Shown: positions 13,643 to 34,201 of the stretch, piece after piece
Numbering within the stretch: the first letter of the stretch is position 1
How the letters are laid out: the number at the start of each line of letters is the position of its first letter
Source of the DNA: a virus
Taxonomy: Duplodnaviria; Caudoviricetes
Virus record (IMG/VR): IMGVR_UViG_3300033067_001864
Location: 1-37,996 of that record
Length of the DNA: 37,996 nt
Strand: one strand, 5' to 3'
Translations under genes and position numbers: made by a program
Notes under the pieces: model-generated
What the model saw: the letters and a program-made list of their open reading frames with translations, nothing else
The model's database searches: none
What the model was told of the DNA's origin: nothing

Positions 13643-14046
13643 TTTGAATCTTTTACGTTCTGGTAAAGGTAGCGGCCGAGAATCTCCGTAAGTGATTCCC
13701 ATGCGATGCGCGTTTCTTCTTCGGACTTGAAAGGACGTTCGATAAGGTTCCGCATCGGCTGTGTTGCGAGGTGCGCCATCTCATGCGCGATCTCTTCGCG
13801 GAACTCCTCGTCGCCCTTGCGCTTCCAGTCGTCGAGCGCGTTCGGGTAGACAGTGATCGAAGCGCGTAGGTAGTCCGTATCGACGCGGATCTCCATCGCG
13901 CATCGCGGCTTGCACGGATCGTTCCCGTCCATGTAGTGCGTATCGATCGCATATGCGCCGACGCCGAGGTTCTCGCGGTACTTCGGAATCATCTCGCGGA
14001 ATAGCTTCTTGAAACGTTCCGGGTACGGCGATTTCTTTTTAGCCAT
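13639..14046 (-). CDS. HExxH zinc-metallopeptidase-like protein
   Basis: EEIAHEMAH motif with a downstream Glu (AWESLTE). Start ATG 14046 (MAKKKSP). Confidence 0.6.
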   Translation of the reverse strand: MAKKKSPYPERFKKLFREMIPKYRENLGVGAYAIDTHYMDGNDPCKPRCAMEIRVDTDYLRASITVYPNALDDWKRKGDEEFREEIAHEMAHLATQPMRNLIERPFKSEEETRIAWESLTEILGRYLYQNVKDSK

Positions 14047-14956
14047 AGAGGTATTCAAACATGCGCGTGAAGCGATTCGCGTACGTGTGGTTCTTCGCGT
14101 GTTCATAACCGGCCGCACGGATCTCTTCGCGTTCCTTCTCGTGTTCGAGATAGTAGTTCAGCTTCTCGATGGACTCTTCAAACGTATCGAAATAGACGCG
14201 CGTTCCTTCCGGATAGTCGAGCTCGCATCCGGGGAAGCGCTTCGTGAGCGCGAAGCCTCCGGACGCCGTGATGATCCAATGCCGGTTAGAGGTATAGCGT
14301 GCAACGTCCGTGAAATGAGACTGATCGAGCACGACCTTCGAGGAGCGATAGATCGCGGGAGCGTTCTCGAATACCTTCGCGCGTAGATCCGGCCGGGAGA
14401 CGGGACCATCGAGCACCTTCAGTCCGGCCTCCTTCTGATAGCGGTAGATCTCGATCGCTCGATCGAGGAACGAGGCGCCCGTGATTTTGCCCCCTATGAA
14501 GACGAAAGGGAAGGAAAGGCGCGGTTGTACCGTAGGGCTGTAGATCTTCGAGCCTAGAGGCAAATAGAGGCACTTCCGGGCCTTCCACCCCCGCTCGTAG
14601 AAGCCGCTTTGCGCGTCATTCGATACGAACATGGCGTCGAGCTCCGAAATGTCCGCATCGATCTGCCCGGTTATGCGGCTCCGGTAGTCTCCGTACCACA
14701 ACACTATCTTTGCATTCGGCAAGCGTGCGCGGATCTCATGGCGCCAGTCGAAACGGCGGACGATATCGATCAGTCCATAGACGACGAGATCCGGCTGATA
14801 CTCCACGATCGCATCTATGTCGATGCGCGGCCGGCACGTGAAGAATTGAAACGGAACCTTCAGCGCGGCGAGGCCGTCTTGCATCCCTTCCCAGTTCGGA
14901 CAGAACTTCTCGTACTCCGGCCAGTCCGTACCGATGATCGCTACCTTGTCAGGCAT
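14039..14956 (-). CDS. Glycosyltransferase (GT-B, CgeB/Glyco_trans_1_2-like)
   Basis: Motifs YQPDLV, LWYGD, FVFIG, YRSSKVVL, SNRHW and HTYANR. Start ATG 14956 (MPDKVAIIG). Confidence 0.8.
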   Translation of the reverse strand: MPDKVAIIGTDWPEYEKFCPNWEGMQDGLAALKVPFQFFTCRPRIDIDAIVEYQPDLVVYGLIDIVRRFDWRHEIRARLPNAKIVLWYGDYRSRITGQIDADISELDAMFVSNDAQSGFYERGWKARKCLYLPLGSKIYSPTVQPRLSFPFVFIGGKITGASFLDRAIEIYRYQKEAGLKVLDGPVSRPDLRAKVFENAPAIYRSSKVVLDQSHFTDVARYTSNRHWIITASGGFALTKRFPGCELDYPEGTRVYFDTFEESIEKLNYYLEHEKEREEIRAAGYEHAKNHTYANRFTRMFEYLYG

Positions 14957-15384
14957 ATCGTGAATATGTGCCGCTCGTTCTCGCGGAATGTCGCACTCGA
15001 CCACGGGAGGAATCCGTACACGGACCCGTAGTTATCGTGCTCGTGCGTTCCCTTCAGGAAGTATTCGAACGTCTCGCGCGTGAATCGGCGCACGTCCATC
15101 GGATCGCGCATAGAGATCGCATACCGGGCGTTCGGCACGATGATCGTCGCGACGCCTCCGGGCGCCATGACGCGGTGCATCTCGTTCATGCAGAAGATCA
15201 AATCCTCTGTAGCGAGTATTTGTTCGAGCACTCCGGAGATGTAAATGTCAGTAGCTACGCCATCCTTGAACGGGAGAGGATCCTTTGAAATATCGAGATA
15301 ATGCTCCGCGCGGACTTCGCGGGAGATATCGATATTCACGTAGCCCGGCTTATAGTCCCGGCCGCATCCGAGATTCAGCTTCAT
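14941..15384 (-). CDS. Class I SAM-dependent methyltransferase (type 11)
   Basis: Motifs KLNLGCG…GYVNID, LPF and EMHRVMAPGG…VP. Confidence 0.85.
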   Translation of the reverse strand: MKLNLGCGRDYKPGYVNIDISREVRAEHYLDISKDPLPFKDGVATDIYISGVLEQILATEDLIFCMNEMHRVMAPGGVATIIVPNARYAISMRDPMDVRRFTRETFEYFLKGTHEHDNYGSVYGFLPWSSATFRENERHIFTICLTR

Positions 15385-15896
15385 GCCGGCTTGCGTGCGA
15401 GAACGTTCCCCATGACGCCGATCGAGGGATTCTGATCAGCGTATTCGAGAAGGATCGCGATGCCTTTCTTCTGAAGGAACTCGACGATCTCCGGAACGTC
15501 CTTCGGGTAGTAGCCTTGCTCGCCGTGCGGATCGAACTCCGGACCGTGCGCGGAACTCTTCCGGGTAGCCCAGCGGAAAAGGATCAGTCCTCCCGGCTTC
15601 AGGGATTCGAGTACCTTCGTCAGCGTCTCTTCCCATTCCGGATCGTGTTCGAGGTGATTCGCGGAAAGCAGAACGTCGAAGGATTCCTTCGGGAGCTTCG
15701 TGTCAGCACCCTTCATCACGACGTCTACGTTCTTCCCTTCGATCCAGTCCACGCCGAGGAACTCGCAGTCTTCGAACGGACCGCGCACGTTGCCGTTCAC
15801 GTCGAGCGCTCCGACTTCGAGCACCTTCTTCCCTTTGAAGAAAGCGGGGTAGGAGCTCTTCGCACGTTCTATGAAATTGAGGTCGAGTTGATTCAT
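15381..15896 (-). CDS. Class I SAM-dependent methyltransferase
   Basis: Motifs VLEVGALDVNG, SFDVLLSANHLEHDP and LKPGGL. Confidence 0.85.
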   Translation of the reverse strand: MNQLDLNFIERAKSSYPAFFKGKKVLEVGALDVNGNVRGPFEDCEFLGVDWIEGKNVDVVMKGADTKLPKESFDVLLSANHLEHDPEWEETLTKVLESLKPGGLILFRWATRKSSAHGPEFDPHGEQGYYPKDVPEIVEFLQKKGIAILLEYADQNPSIGVMGNVLARKPA

Positions 15897-15898
15897 GG

Positions 15899-16597
15899 CT
15901 ATTTCGTAAGATGCCGATAAAGTTCGCGCGCATACGTCTTGTCCTTCTCACGTAGAGGATCGAGCTTGAAGGACGCGCCGCCGATGTGCTCCACGAGCAC
16001 GTCTTTACGCATGATAGCGCCTCCGATCGTGCGGCCGGCACGAATAGCCCACTCGCTATCCTGCCCGTAGATATAGAAACGCTCATCGAACTTACCTACT
16101 TTCTCGTATGCGCTCTTCTTGAAAAGGAAGAAGAAGCCGCTCCATGCATCCTTGTTCCGGAAGCCATCGAACGGTTCGGCCGATCGCACGTACTGGTGCG
16201 CGCCGCCTTGCGCCGTCGATACGGGAATCACGAGGCCTGTCTCGTCGATACTTTCCATCATGCGCGTCAGCCAGCACGGCGAGAGCTTCTTCTCCGGAAT
16301 GTACGCATCGCTATCGCAGATCAGAACGTAGTCGCACGTCGCTTGCTCGACGAGTAAGTTCCATATGCGCGAGGTGTTGCGGTTATTCTCTTCGCCTTCG
16401 AGCGGCCGGTTATCGAATACGTTCAGCTTGAACGGCCAGTCGGTATTGTGGATGATGCGCGTGATCGCCTTATCGATGATCTCCGGATTCTCCTTGAACT
16501 TCAGCATCACGATCTCGACGCGCTTCGTCTCGCGGAGCGCTGATAGCGGTTCCGCGGCGAGCGCTTTCATCTCCTTGAAATCGTCTCGTACGCTCAT
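15899..16597 (-). CDS. Glycosyltransferase family 2-like
   Basis: DxD motif in YVLICDSD, plus GFFFLF and VGKFDERFYIYGQDSEW. Confidence 0.8.
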   Translation of the reverse strand: MSVRDDFKEMKALAAEPLSALRETKRVEIVMLKFKENPEIIDKAITRIIHNTDWPFKLNVFDNRPLEGEENNRNTSRIWNLLVEQATCDYVLICDSDAYIPEKKLSPCWLTRMMESIDETGLVIPVSTAQGGAHQYVRSAEPFDGFRNKDAWSGFFFLFKKSAYEKVGKFDERFYIYGQDSEWAIRAGRTIGGAIMRKDVLVEHIGGASFKLDPLREKDKTYARELYRHLTK

Positions 16598-17703
16598 AGC
16601 GGGTATCCGGACTTGATCGCGATCTTCGCGAGGCGCACGACCATCTCGACGTTCTTGCGCGTTAGCCGGTGATGGAAGGGAATCAGCGTGTAGCTTTCTT
16701 CGAGGCGGTTCATGTTCGGAAGGACGTCGAGATCTCTTCGGTTCGGCGTACGGCTGAAGATCGAATACTTATCGTTCCGGTAATGGTACGGACCCGATCC
16801 GATGTTGTAGCGCTTCAGGAGCTTATCGATCGCACGAGCTCGCGGATGCACGATGATCATCAGCCACGGGAGCGTTCGAAGGAGATAGAGATCGAGGCCG
16901 TGCGCTTCCCATTCTTCGAGATACCACGCGCGAACCTGTGCGCGCTTCTTCAGGACGTATCGAATACGGCGAAGGTTGCCGAGGCCGATCGCCGCGTTCA
17001 CGTCGTTCATGTGGTACTTGTAGCCGGCTTCCGTGAGATCCGTATCGCCTAGCCTTTGCTTCGCTTCCCGGTCGTAGCCGAACCAGCGTAAGCGACGCGC
17101 CTTTTCCGCGTCGTCGGAGTTTCCGCAAATGAGGAACCCGCCGTCTCCTGCTGTAAGAGTTTTGATAGCCTGAAGAGAGACGCAAGTGTAATCGGCTTTG
17201 CACCAATTCTCCGGACTTGCGCCGACACTTTGGGCCGCGTCTTCAATGACTCGAATACCACGTCGCCGAGCAAGTACCATAAGTTGTCCAAGGCCACTTG
17301 CTGATCCTCCGAAATTGACGAAGACGATCGCTTTCGTACGGTCCGTGATTTTCCTTTCGATGTCTTCGATGGAGGCGTTGAGGTTTTCATCTATGTCAGC
17401 AAAAACGATTTTAGCACCGCGTCGTACGAGCGGGAGATTCGTAGCGGTACAGGTGAGGACCGGAGTGATCACTTCGTCGCCCGGTCCGATGCCGGCTAGC
17501 TCGTATGCGAGTTCGAGCGCAGTCGTGCCGCTGTTCACGGAGACGACGCGGCGCCAGTTCACGATCCCTATGAACCGAGCGAACTCCTTTTCGAATTGCT
17601 TCACGACCGGACCTTCGGCGATCTGCTTTCCGGAGAGCACGATCAGCGCATAGAGGCGCGCGAGCCATGAGACGTACGGGTAAAAAAGCGGGATCTGTTT
17701 CAT
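16594..17703 (-). CDS. DegT/DnrJ/EryC1/StrS family PLP-dependent sugar aminotransferase
   Basis: Motifs VNSGTTALELA, GDEVITP, IEDAAQSVG, SLQAIKTLTAGDGG (PLP Lys) and GYKYHMNDVNAAIG. Confidence 0.92.
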   Translation of the reverse strand: MKQIPLFYPYVSWLARLYALIVLSGKQIAEGPVVKQFEKEFARFIGIVNWRRVVSVNSGTTALELAYELAGIGPGDEVITPVLTCTATNLPLVRRGAKIVFADIDENLNASIEDIERKITDRTKAIVFVNFGGSASGLGQLMVLARRRGIRVIEDAAQSVGASPENWCKADYTCVSLQAIKTLTAGDGGFLICGNSDDAEKARRLRWFGYDREAKQRLGDTDLTEAGYKYHMNDVNAAIGLGNLRRIRYVLKKRAQVRAWYLEEWEAHGLDLYLLRTLPWLMIIVHPRARAIDKLLKRYNIGSGPYHYRNDKYSIFSRTPNRRDLDVLPNMNRLEESYTLIPFHHRLTRKNVEMVVRLAKIAIKSGYPL

Positions 17704-18101
17704 ATAAATCGTGAGGCTTCTTCGTAAGTAATGATACCGCCATAGTTCGAGGCGATAGATCGATGGATGTAGTCGATCGCGTCGGCACGCTTCCTTCGAT
17801 TCGGTACATGCGCTCGCACGTATGACGCTTCGTGCTTATGCCCTTCGAGCTCCTCCTGAAGACGGAAGGCGTCGTTCCGGATGTATTCGCGCCACCATGC
17901 CGCGGGACCGCCGGGGAAGGCGAGCTGTTGCCGGACATGGATCTCTTCGTGCGCGATGATCTGCGGCGAGATGTGCGGGTTCTTGCAATGGATCGTATCG
18001 CCGTACGTGATCACGACGCCGCGCTCCCATAGATCCTTGCCGAACTTCTCTTCGATATGCGGATAGTTCACCGGCTTCTCTTGCGAGCGCTTGATCGTCA
18101 T
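17700..18101 (-). CDS. HExxH metallopeptidase-like protein
   Basis: IIAHEEIHVRQQ motif with a downstream ELEG. Translationally coupled on both sides. Confidence 0.6.
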   Translation of the reverse strand: MTIKRSQEKPVNYPHIEEKFGKDLWERGVVITYGDTIHCKNPHISPQIIAHEEIHVRQQLAFPGGPAAWWREYIRNDAFRLQEELEGHKHEASYVRAHVPNRRKRADAIDYIHRSIASNYGGIITYEEASRFI

Positions 18102-19024
18102 AGCGTCTTGCCGTCGAGATACGCGGCGATGGTATCAGCGACCGCGAGCTTCGGCGCCCATCCGAACTCGTCGGCGAATCGCTTCGAAGTCATTTCGTAG
18201 CGCATATCCATACCGACGCGCTTCCCCGGAACGGTAGGGATCTTGCGGCCGAGGTACTTCTCCGCCTCCATGATCAGGTCGAGGACCGTGCATCCGTAGC
18301 CGGCCGTGATGTTGTAGGTTCGATGCCCCTTTTCGAGAAGGATCTCCACGATCGGCGGGATCTCTTTCACGTAGATCCATTGCCGGTAGCCCATGCCGCC
18401 GTTGTGCAGGGTTATGGGAGCTCCTCCGTTCGCGGCACGAAGGAGGGCCGGGAATATCTTTCGATCATCCTGCCGAGGTCCGAAGACATTGCAGAAGCGC
18501 GATTCGACGGTTCGATCTCGCAGTTCGGGATACGTGTTGTCGTAAGCGAGACGCAGAGAGGATCCGAATGCTTTGGATAGAGCGTACGGGTTTCGAGGGA
18601 ATATGATCTCGTCTTCGGATTTGGGGTGATCACATTCTCCATACACTTCATCGGTTGAGACGTATAAAAGTTTCTTCAGTCGCTTGCACTTGCGGGCGGC
18701 TTCGAACGCATTGATCGTAGCGTTATTGTTCGCCTGAATCGTCTTCAGCGGGAACTTGATCGAGTAGTCCACGTCCGAGATCGCGGCCGCGTGGATGATG
18801 TAGTCGGGATCGATCGCGACGATCTTATCGATAGCCGCGGCGAATGAGACGTCGAGCTCGTGGAAGCGCCAATTCGGATACTGTTCCTTCCACTCCGGAA
18901 GGAGTTCCGCATGAGATCCGGCCGAGAGGTTATCGAATCCGTGGACTTCCCAGCCTTTCTTCAGGAAATACTCGACGACGTGCGAGAAGATGAATCCCTG
19001 CGATCCGAGGACGACGAGCTTCAT
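18098..19024 (-). CDS. NAD-dependent epimerase/dehydratase, dTDP-glucose 4,6-dehydratase (RmlB)-like
   Basis: Motifs GSQGFIFSH, HAAAISDVDYS, STDEVYG, PYALSKA (YxxxK) and RFCNVFGPRQ. Confidence 0.88.
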   Translation of the reverse strand: MKLVVLGSQGFIFSHVVEYFLKKGWEVHGFDNLSAGSHAELLPEWKEQYPNWRFHELDVSFAAAIDKIVAIDPDYIIHAAAISDVDYSIKFPLKTIQANNNATINAFEAARKCKRLKKLLYVSTDEVYGECDHPKSEDEIIFPRNPYALSKAFGSSLRLAYDNTYPELRDRTVESRFCNVFGPRQDDRKIFPALLRAANGGAPITLHNGGMGYRQWIYVKEIPPIVEILLEKGHRTYNITAGYGCTVLDLIMEAEKYLGRKIPTVPGKRVGMDMRYEMTSKRFADEFGWAPKLAVADTIAAYLDGKTL

Positions 19025-32870: not shown

Positions 32871-32885
32871 GCTATCATGCACGCA

Positions 32886-33416
32886 ATGGATCTTCTCTTC
32901 GCGGATACAGAAACGACCGGCTTCGGCGACTGCCGCATGATCGAGATCGCGCACAAGACGCCCGGAGGCAAACTCTTTACGTGCCGCGTGAAGCCGCCGA
33001 TCCCTATCGAAGCCGGCGCCACGGCCGTACACGGGATCACGGACGAAATGCTTACGCTCCTCCCGGCGTTCATCGAGCATCCGGAATACGGCACGATCAA
33101 ACGGATCATCGAGACTTCCCTCGTCGTCTTTCATAACGCGCCCTTCGATATCGCGGTCCTAGCGCGGGAGGGAATTGCGGTCCCGACGTATCTCGATACG
33201 CAGAAGATCGCGAAGCATCTCTACCCGCACGCGCCGAACCACAAGCTACAGGGCTTACGCGACTATCTGCATCTCGAAGGAGGCGACGCACATTCGGCCG
33301 GAGGCGACGTTCTCACGCTCGAATCACTCTTCGTTCAGATGCACGCAGATATGGAATTGAAAGGGACCGCGCCCGACGACGTGATCAGACAGATGATGAT
33401 CGCAACCCTACACTAA
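32886..33416 (+). CDS. DEDDh 3'-5' exonuclease (DnaQ / exonuclease X-like)
   Basis: ExoI DTETTG, VHGIT, ExoII FHNAPFD, LDT, ExoIII AHSAGGD. ATG 32886 is 7 nt after TGCTATCAT. Confidence 0.9.
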   Translation: MDLLFADTETTGFGDCRMIEIAHKTPGGKLFTCRVKPPIPIEAGATAVHGITDEMLTLLPAFIEHPEYGTIKRIIETSLVVFHNAPFDIAVLAREGIAVPTYLDTQKIAKHLYPHAPNHKLQGLRDYLHLEGGDAHSAGGDVLTLESLFVQMHADMELKGTAPDDVIRQMMIATLH

Positions 33417-33515: not shown

Positions 33516-33671
33516 GCTTTTATCATAGCAGAACCGAACGTAGCACAATCTACATTTGACGCACATGGCCTTATTTGCCCGTAGAAGCCGCGTTCCGAGC
33601 GCGGCAATGGAATATCTCATCTGAAGGGGAAAAGATGCCTACAAAGGCAAACAAGGGCATATGCTGATGGA

Positions 33672-33835
33672 TAGGAGGCGCCCTATCAATCGAGGTCCGA
33701 CGGCTTGTTCCATCCGGACACACACCCCAAGAAAAGGCGCCTCCACCAGTTCTTTTCCCTCGAAAGGAGGTGATCCGTATCTACTGCCCGTATGGGTTTA
33801 GGACGGAAGGCCCGCGATTCTTCGCGGGCCTTTTC
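33672..33835 (+). ncRNA. Candidate structured sRNA containing a 15-nt complement of the 16S rRNA 3' end
   Basis: -10 TATGCT at 33660-33665. 5' stem GGAGGCGCC (33674) / GGCGCCTCC (33736). GAAAGGAGGTGATCC at 33762-33776. Terminator at 33807-33834. Confidence 0.55.
33807..33834. terminator. Intrinsic terminator between the candidate sRNA and the lysis genes
   Basis: AAGGCCCGCGA-TTCT-TCGCGGGCCTTTT, with the U-tract on the + strand. Confidence 0.8.
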
Positions 33836-34201
33836 CTATGAGAGAAGCGGCTTCACTTTATTCCAGTACGGCGTGGTAGCGGCGTAGAGCTTGCTCGATG
33901 GATTCCAGGCGGAGGGTCCGCCGTTCCAGATGCGCGCTCGATCTTCGTTCGTCGGAGCGCGGCCGATCGCGGCCGTCGTAGCGTAGATCGACATATAGAG
34001 CCAAAAGACAGCGAGCGACTTCGCCGTGTAGCCGAGGAGATCCGCGGCGACGAACTTCGTGCCGTACTTCTTATTCACGTCGTCGCATACCGGCTGACGG
34101 ATCTGCATCGGACCGTAGGCGTGTTCGGAAAGATGCTTATCCCCGTGTGCATTCGGATCGCCGCCGCTTTCTATCTGCATGATCGCAAAGTCTATGTTCA
34201 T
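33836..34201 (-). CDS. Lysozyme-like / lytic transglycosylase
   Basis: Motifs IMQIESGG (catalytic Glu), GPMQI, ARIWNGGP and YWNKV. Confidence 0.8.
   Translation of the reverse strand: MNIDFAIMQIESGGDPNAHGDKHLSEHAYGPMQIRQPVCDDVNKKYGTKFVAADLLGYTAKSLAVFWLYMSIYATTAAIGRAPTNEDRARIWNGGPSAWNPSSKLYAATTPYWNKVKPLLS

Follow-up and report, generated by a model that had tools for sequence, protein, structure and literature searches.

In the cry3A mRNA of Bacillus thuringiensis, a perfect Shine-Dalgarno (SD) sequence that lacks a start codon, known as STAB-SD, reportedly acts in cis as a 5΄ stabilizer of the downstream gene and is said to hold a 30S subunit. The rre genes are chromosomal and, according to the available part of PMC5711450, carry a GTG or ATG start and a conserved open reading frame (ORF) of 14–26 codons; the same part of that source describes tight 30S binding in vivo by the 17-nt SD of rreB. 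RMF, HPF and RaiA, host proteins that act on 70S and 100S ribosomes, cover the anti-SD and helix 24 (h24) of 16S rRNA, as stated in the accessible portion of PMC7913689.

The locus analyzed here resembles each of these systems and belongs to neither the rreB/CC2171 group nor STAB-SD. Like rreB, rreR and CC2171, it is predicted to give a stand-alone RNA of ~165 nt with a 15–17-nt complement of the 16S tail and a partly hidden SD (PMC5711450, available part), and it shares with rreB and rreR a TC(T) word at a nearly equal distance from the SD. In contrast to the rre genes, it has no start codon and no shared ORF, possesses an extra covarying 5΄ domain and is phage-borne. A strong SD without a start codon is common to this unit and STAB-SD; however, the unit ends in a terminator-like hairpin and is followed by a convergent gene, and it combines a longer match with a second conserved rRNA-complementary word. 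Whereas RMF, HPF and RaiA are proteins, the unit is a predicted RNA that would reach the same 16S sites by base pairing.

The window, that is, the whole stretch of 37,996 nucleotides that was analyzed (IMG/VR record IMGVR_UViG_3300033067_001864), is a whole 38-kb linear virus record with an estimated completeness of 93%, in which head, lysis, exonuclease and sugar-enzyme genes were assigned from weak matches. Among the sequencing runs that match this DNA, no RNA data set was listed; run X1 carries it unchanged and may be its origin, and run X2 covers parts of it and is uninformative on variation. The element (Table 1) follows a DnaQ-like gene on the + strand that ends at 33416 and precedes a convergent lysis-type pair beginning at 33836, so placed that the terminator-like hairpin abuts the stop codon of the gene at 33836–34201. 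Searches with the terminase and capsid proteins for host assignment matched no named relatives, and one window protein gave distant Streptomyces-phage matches; a Patescibacteria host is our guess from the low SD use and a copy in a TM7 phage. Elsewhere in the window, glycosyltransferase, methyltransferase, DegT aminotransferase and epimerase genes follow the capsid gene within the virion operon (14039–19024, – strand), as they do in relatives, and possibly form a capsid glycosylation module.

Table 1. Features of the predicted RNA unit in the window and the basis of each assignment
Feature	Positions	Strand	Basis
–10-like hexamer TATGCT; predicted start ~33672–33674	33660..33665	+	Homologues; not called by promoter scan
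P1, 5΄ strand; closes 70–79-nt 5΄ domain	33674..33682	+	Fold, covariation
P2, inner hairpin	33695..33719	+	Four consensus pairs, one with two-sided change; MFE folds
Conserved single-stranded ACACAC	33720..33725	+	CACAC invariant in 7/7 aligned members; missing in distant L270
P1, 3΄ strand	33736..33744	+	Fold, covariation
ACCAG right after P1; complement of 16S 797–801; resembles tRNA NCCA end	33745..33749	+	8/8 members
Pyrimidine-rich linker, 7–15 nt across family; can pair with SD in window	33750..33761	+	Fold
Extended SD, 15-nt complement of 16S 3΄ tail, without start codon behind	33762..33776	+	Sequence match, duplex energy
GTATCTA, exact complement of 16S 789–795 (790 loop); core ATCT conserved	33777..33783	+	16S comparison, enrichment
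CCC..GGG hairpin	33786..33806	+	Comparison with pseudoknot-like fold of two close relatives
Terminator-like hairpin with 4-U tract	33807..33834	+	Fold

As the original prediction had stated, the 15-mer GAAAGGAGGTGATCC at 33762–33776 (+) is an exact reverse complement of a 16S tail, here that of a fetched alphaproteobacterial sequence; it has no second exact copy in the window. Its match to E. coli 16S extends over 13 bases (positions 1529–1541), and the predicted duplex with the alpha-type tail has an energy of about –27 kcal/mol. The complement measures 15 nt against this alpha-type tail, which may not be that of the host, compared with the 16–17 nt of the rre criterion. The chance expectation of 7e-5 that had been quoted is correct as arithmetic (2 × 38 kb/4^15), but it was calculated post hoc, and IMG/VR contains an estimated ~550 such stretches. 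The nearest ATG, at 33792, indeed lies 21 nt past GGAGG and opens a 31-codon ORF that runs across the terminator; a near-cognate ATC at 33779, at start-codon distance from the SD, had been overlooked. In the fold predicted for the window element, part of the SD is engaged in internal pairs. The window genes are SD-poor, as previously claimed, with SD-like motifs ahead of 5 of 42 genes compared with 13.5% of random sites. Judged by its complementarity, the RNA would probably bind the anti-SD.

A promoter and an intrinsic terminator had also been proposed. TATGCT is present at 33660–33665, but a consensus scan made no call and there is no clear –35; likewise, the terminator-like hairpin is present, but with a tract of only four U residues and again no call. 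We retained both assignments because the homologues carry these signals: a TANNNT hexamer ends 6–8 nt ahead of the first stem base in seven of eight family members, and a run of four or more T residues lies behind the core in seven of eight. The 9-bp stem, P1, was found as described; it has 7–9 pairs in seven members and 15 in the distant member L270. Two-sided changes occur at six of its eight pairs, and none of 500 shuffles reached the observed score while slid registers scored far lower, in a test that comprises only seven sequences and a shuffle control that ignores kinship. The element region has a folding z of –4.45, to which the terminator contributes. The ACACAC tract may possibly be an S1 or loading tract. 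ACCAG was demanded by the search for four of the eight members and appeared unforced in L255, L272 and L331. The CCC..GGG hairpin seems to be a decayed version of the pseudoknot-like fold that complementarity alone predicts in the two close relatives. No Rfam family at the gathering score and no ARAGORN tRNA was called in the window; the best weak match, Rfam RF01867 (CC2171), scored 28.7 bits against a 75-bit cut-off and covered the SD and terminator only, and CC2171 gave sub-threshold matches in 14 of 20 core loci. Ms_IGR-5 (RF02471) was absent among the window Rfam matches down to an E-value of 10, and no conserved small hydrophobic ORF of the kind seen in type I toxin-antitoxin systems lies behind the SD. 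A minus-strand anti-SD mimic was rejected because it is the + strand that accounts for the –10 boxes, the U tracts and the G-U pairs.

The unit recurs in six homologues (L255, L267, L272, L279, L287 and L331) and in the distant L270. Pattern scans recovered L255 and L272 without a 5΄ constraint, L267 and L270 in a scan with four family loci out of 22, L279 and L287 in a 28-locus scan and L331 in a 26-locus scan. The shared order is a –10 box, an 8-bp stem, an ACACAC loop, ACCAG, a long SD, ATCT, a hairpin and a terminator; in all eight members P1 begins with G and ends just before ACCAG, which is followed by the pyrimidine linker, the long SD and ATCT. A covariance model built without L270 recovers L270 at the correct position with a weak score (17.3 bits, E = 0.2). 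The six records tested share 0–3 ORFs with one another and stem from otherwise unrelated phages, and by eye five of the eight copies adjoin apparent lysis genes, in either orientation. No ATG, GTG or TTG was found within 22 nt after AGGAGG in any of 12 elements, nor did these share a peptide in two near-cognate frames. Two of the findings that the original prediction had named as damaging, a conserved small ORF in relatives and absence of the motif from related phages, did not materialize: the homologues share no ORF, and the motif is present.

Model R1 searched against 150 more loci yielded no further member, an exact 23-mer scan of viral contigs gave no match, and an exonuclease-based locus search returned only distant genes (26–47%), none with the 5΄ domain. 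The family pattern matched 15 loci in 185,579 prokaryote genomes, mostly rre genes and none with the 5΄ domain. A capsid-protein search returned four records, one with the core (77% identity) and three without it (62%; 10–66% complete). In the two closest relatives, at 77% capsid identity, the core is kept behind a stop codon without the promoter and P1 domain; one of them, G010, was found by motif and its relatedness was established afterwards. A tmRNA gene lies ~330 nt before the L272 element (L506:2268–2694 in the small phage G012; RF00023, 61.9 bits) and was missed by ARAGORN.

Many of the exact 15-mers in IMG/VR are coding or ordinary SDs, as would suit a chance match or a decayed ribosome-binding site without function. 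We regard this explanation as hardly credible in view of the covarying family, the conserved promoter spacing, the terminators and the ATCT enrichment described below; the covariation largely refutes it, and the unit is very probably a real functional non-coding RNA. The 5΄ domain could alternatively be a tRNA-acceptor mimic (a G1-C72-like stem followed by ACCA) that is cut off and acts as a decoy by itself. In 8/8 members, the stem runs from the predicted +1 to directly before ACCA over 70–79 nt, giving an acceptor-like stem with NCCA that was search-forced in four of them. However, neither a T arm nor a cloverleaf was found, ARAGORN and Rfam called no tRNA or tmRNA, the three homologues with an unforced ACCAG also retain the G that follows ACCA, and close relatives lack the domain, so that such mimicry seems very improbable.

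The family phages share the low SD use of the window phage: all six records tested show 0–12% SD use against a background of 7–12%. In the window, –10 boxes lie 5–8 nt before 8 of 45 gene starts, compared with an expected 2.3%, and such boxes occur directly before start codons in four of six family records (not significant in the other two), which is a leaderless-type signature. In the window, –10-like hexamers 5–8 nt before ATG were noted for 8686, 9899, 12930, 22409, 23475 and 35503 (–) and for 32886 (+). These positions suggest that the genes concerned, the major capsid gene among them, could give leaderless mRNAs, and the exonuclease probably starts at 32886 and not at 32877.

To characterize the core, that is, the long SD followed by ATCT, we used an unbiased 15-mer scan of IMG/VR, in which 119 loci of an estimated 550 gave 67 non-redundant contexts: 41 start-less, 22 with a start codon, three of one coding family and one rRNA. 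Within 9 nt behind the 15-mer, ATCT was present in 18 of the 41 start-less contexts, compared with 2 of 203 control windows and none of the 22 contexts with start codons. SD plus ATCT is present in ~2000 IMG/VR stretches, as estimated from 120 loci in 4/64 parts. The distance between SD and ATCT peaks at 3 nt (25 of 70 non-redundant stretches; chi-square P = 9e-5), and a strict pattern for the pseudoknot-like CCC..GGG fold matched 10 of the 70. Protein-level explanations (KGGDPYL and RKEVIRIY frames) were rejected because the spacing varies from 0 to 5 nt and L331 shifts the frame; 12 of 68 copies of the wide class lie inside open frames, possibly by chance.

Carriers include cultured phages of E. 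coli, Salmonella, Dickeya, Ralstonia (FLC1-1B) and Ruegeria (V13) and the TM7 phage genome DolZOral124_53_65; a separate core query matched 45 records, of which nine were examined individually. The cultured-phage comparison covers 12 of 13 rows, leaving out Alteromonas R8W. In the enterobacterial phages 9NA, Bas82 and JA13, the match reads TAAGG.. and makes 14 of 14 pairs with the E. coli tail, even though the query had GAAAGG, indicating that its 5΄ end follows the 16S tail of the host type. The core is also found in phages that infect SD-using bacteria (E. coli, Salmonella and Streptococcus). In gut-type phages (L380, L388, L397, L425, L431 and L492), an intergenic SD plus ATCT is accompanied by an H-type pseudoknot-like fold, often after a stop codon. 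A recurrent subfamily (L394, L426, L429, L462, L035, L046 and L268) combines SD and ATCT with a GC hairpin and GC(T)GC(G/C)AA(T/C)GAC, apparently in open frames.

The heptamer directly behind the SD in the window (33777–33783), which the original prediction had not noticed, raises the question of whether the RNA pairs with a second 16S site. According to the consulted parts of PMC4613259 and PMC3130014, the 790 loop is exposed on the 30S subunit, takes part in subunit association and initiation, and is the binding site of IF3C. Several results favor pairing with this loop. In 95 contexts, ATCT occurred 29 times, ATCC, ATCA and ATCG three times each and ACCT, the perfect anti-SD word, once. At least five Watson-Crick pairs with the 790 loop could form in 46 of 69 cases compared with 30.1 ± 3.9 in 300 flank randomizations, of the AGAT sites only that at 790 is identical across the four 16S sequences compared, and T is enriched at position –1 of the core (30/68, P = 5e-4). 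However, at least six pairs were not enriched (15 versus 11.2 ± 3.0), and the flanks give little sign of a longer duplex (G at –2, P = 0.2; A at +1, P = 0.05). AGAT is present near 702–707 as well, in all four 16S sequences, and a whole-16S scan of 4-nt matches ranked 786–789 no higher than the windows at 699 and 25. The predicted 790 duplex alone is weak, at –2 to –8 kcal/mol. In the 30S structure, 16S G1529 and C795 are presumably neighbors, near the kasugamycin site.

ATCT, together with a following CC, can also fold back on GGAGGU, forming at least six pairs in 36 of 69 cases compared with an expected 26.1 ± 4.0, and in five of seven scored family members the hairpin potential equals or exceeds the 790 match. 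An RNA that grips only the anti-SD would account for this, with AUCU(CC) as an internal, deliberately weak anti-SD that gates access; the bound 30S subunit would then be a STAB-SD-like roadblock or simple decoy, by which the RNA is stabilized or a few subunits are titrated. Such binding at one site agrees with the enrichment of C at +1 and +2, with the hairpin predicted in most cultured-phage copies, and with rreB, where a hairpin likewise conceals most of the SD according to the available part of PMC5711450. In addition, 25 of 68 wide-class copies come after a stop codon, inside operons, and some lie between genes; together with the absence of promoter and P1 from the two closest relatives, this suits a role in cis and argues against the stand-alone clamp proposed below. 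On the other hand, ACCT, which would fold back perfectly, hardly occurs (1 versus 29 for ATCT), and other weak variants are rare. In the window, L255 and L270, the hairpin has only 4–5 pairs compared with 5–7 pairs to the 790 loop. Javan443 and LeeroyJenkins alter the SD base facing ATCT and keep ATCT, an observation biased by the ATCT-bearing queries. Nor do the stand-alone units have a gene behind them that could be stabilized. We consider one-site binding, the main rival, unlikely. The two roles of ATCT can coexist in a switch, forming the hairpin in the free RNA and pairing with rRNA when bound. Pairing with the 790 loop, as read from the complementarity, is in our estimate possible but somewhat less likely than not.

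ATCT can be explained in another way if the unit is an rre-like micro-mRNA, in which a weak start at the near-cognate AUC, or at NUA before UCU, leads to a stall, and abortive initiation, not a peptide, is the function. ATC is spaced from the SD as a start codon would be (family offset 2), the RTG-TCN of the rre genes is located at nearly the same place, and the part of PMC13009471 available describes extended SDs that support AUU and AUA starts in S. aureus. We found an rre-like gene in 11 of 81 sampled alphaproteobacterial genomes (L515–L526), with unrelated peptides and a serine (TCN) second codon in 11/11; that this codon varies (TCT 7, TCC 2, TCG 1 and TCA 1; n = 11) counts against two-site binding. 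However, the ORFs that would begin at ATC range from 8 to more than 80 codons without shared sequence, the rre start is in another frame, and a start codon has no need of the T that follows ATC (ATCT 29 versus 3, 3 and 3), which makes the micro-mRNA improbable.

As the best explanation at present, we tentatively propose a clamp, derived from sequence comparison, in which a stand-alone RNA of ~165 nt would grip the free 30S subunit at two sites. The unit would be transcribed as a non-coding RNA, which the 5΄ stem and the terminator may stabilize and whose CA-rich loop may help loading. The RNA would load on a free 30S subunit through the exposed seed of the SD, and the 15-base SD would then pair with the 16S 3΄ tail along its entire length. 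From there, (GU)AUCU(A), which adjoins the SD, would continue into the 790 loop, the IF3C site and part of bridge B2b, which would have to open for pairing, and ACCAG may lengthen the grip to 16S 797–801. The 30S subunit so bound would be parked and kept from canonical initiation. The purpose might be a shift from 30S-dependent initiation to the SD-free and leaderless mRNAs of the phage. Leaderless mRNAs can start on 70S ribosomes, and such a start would be expected to favor the phage.

What stood of the original interpretation is a conserved, structured and start-less unit around a full anti-SD complement that is present in other SD-poor phages. Selective shut-off of SD-led host genes, in contrast, would be its weakest step, because the core also occurs in phages of SD-using hosts and because a 20-fold overexpression of rreB did not slow growth, as described in the available part of PMC5711450. 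We consider a net inhibition of host initiation by the RNA doubtful.

An alternative purpose that deserves serious consideration is storage or protection, because E. coli without RMF, HPF and RaiA loses the 16S 3΄ end and h24 (765–798), as described in the accessible portion of PMC7913689. The RNA would then be a hibernation factor whose two-site grip shields the anti-SD and h24 from nucleases and stores subunits without inhibition of the host, which fits the presence of the core in phages whose hosts use SDs, where a shut-off would be to the phage's own detriment. However, the protein factors act on 70S and 100S ribosomes, whereas 790-loop pairing should need a free 30S subunit, and we regard hibernation as quite improbable. 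In its broadest form, the clamp implies that phages of many hosts share a start-less RNA inhibitor that addresses the whole 16S tail and the universally conserved 790 loop, perhaps also 797–801, keeps free 30S subunits away from IF3 and the 50S subunit and, in phages with leaderless mRNAs, re-routes translation through RNA alone; taken as a whole, this we would call rather unlikely.

A conserved phage RNA family built on a widespread core is real and apparently undescribed: we found no paper describing the motif or the mechanism in the accessible, mostly non-subscription literature, although supplements of RNA-motif catalogues may list it. The unit is a variant of extended-SD 30S-binding RNAs and would be categorically new if the second pairing is true. 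It would then be a naturally occurring RNA directed at another functional site of 16S rRNA in addition to the anti-SD, and our literature searches met no published case of such mRNA-rRNA pairing. The rre mini-mRNAs, whose role is unexplained, would gain a possible function, and translation takeover by SD-poor, leaderless-rich phages would become easier to approach. Because the core is present in ~2000 phage contigs and in cultured E. coli phages (Bas82 and Goslar), these proposals are readily testable.

The 15-mer was also observed in other settings. A large coding family (L134, L139, L140, L142, L143, L150 and others) carries it in frame (R-K-E-V-I), in most cases with TCT as the next codon. 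In L007, L149, L165, L220 and L224, Lys/Gly-rich micro-ORFs of ~13–19 codons lie behind a full 15-nt SD, a phage parallel of the rre genes. In L071 (501 onward), a hydrophobic ORF of 28 codons, which presumably resembles a type I toxin, lies behind the 15-mer.
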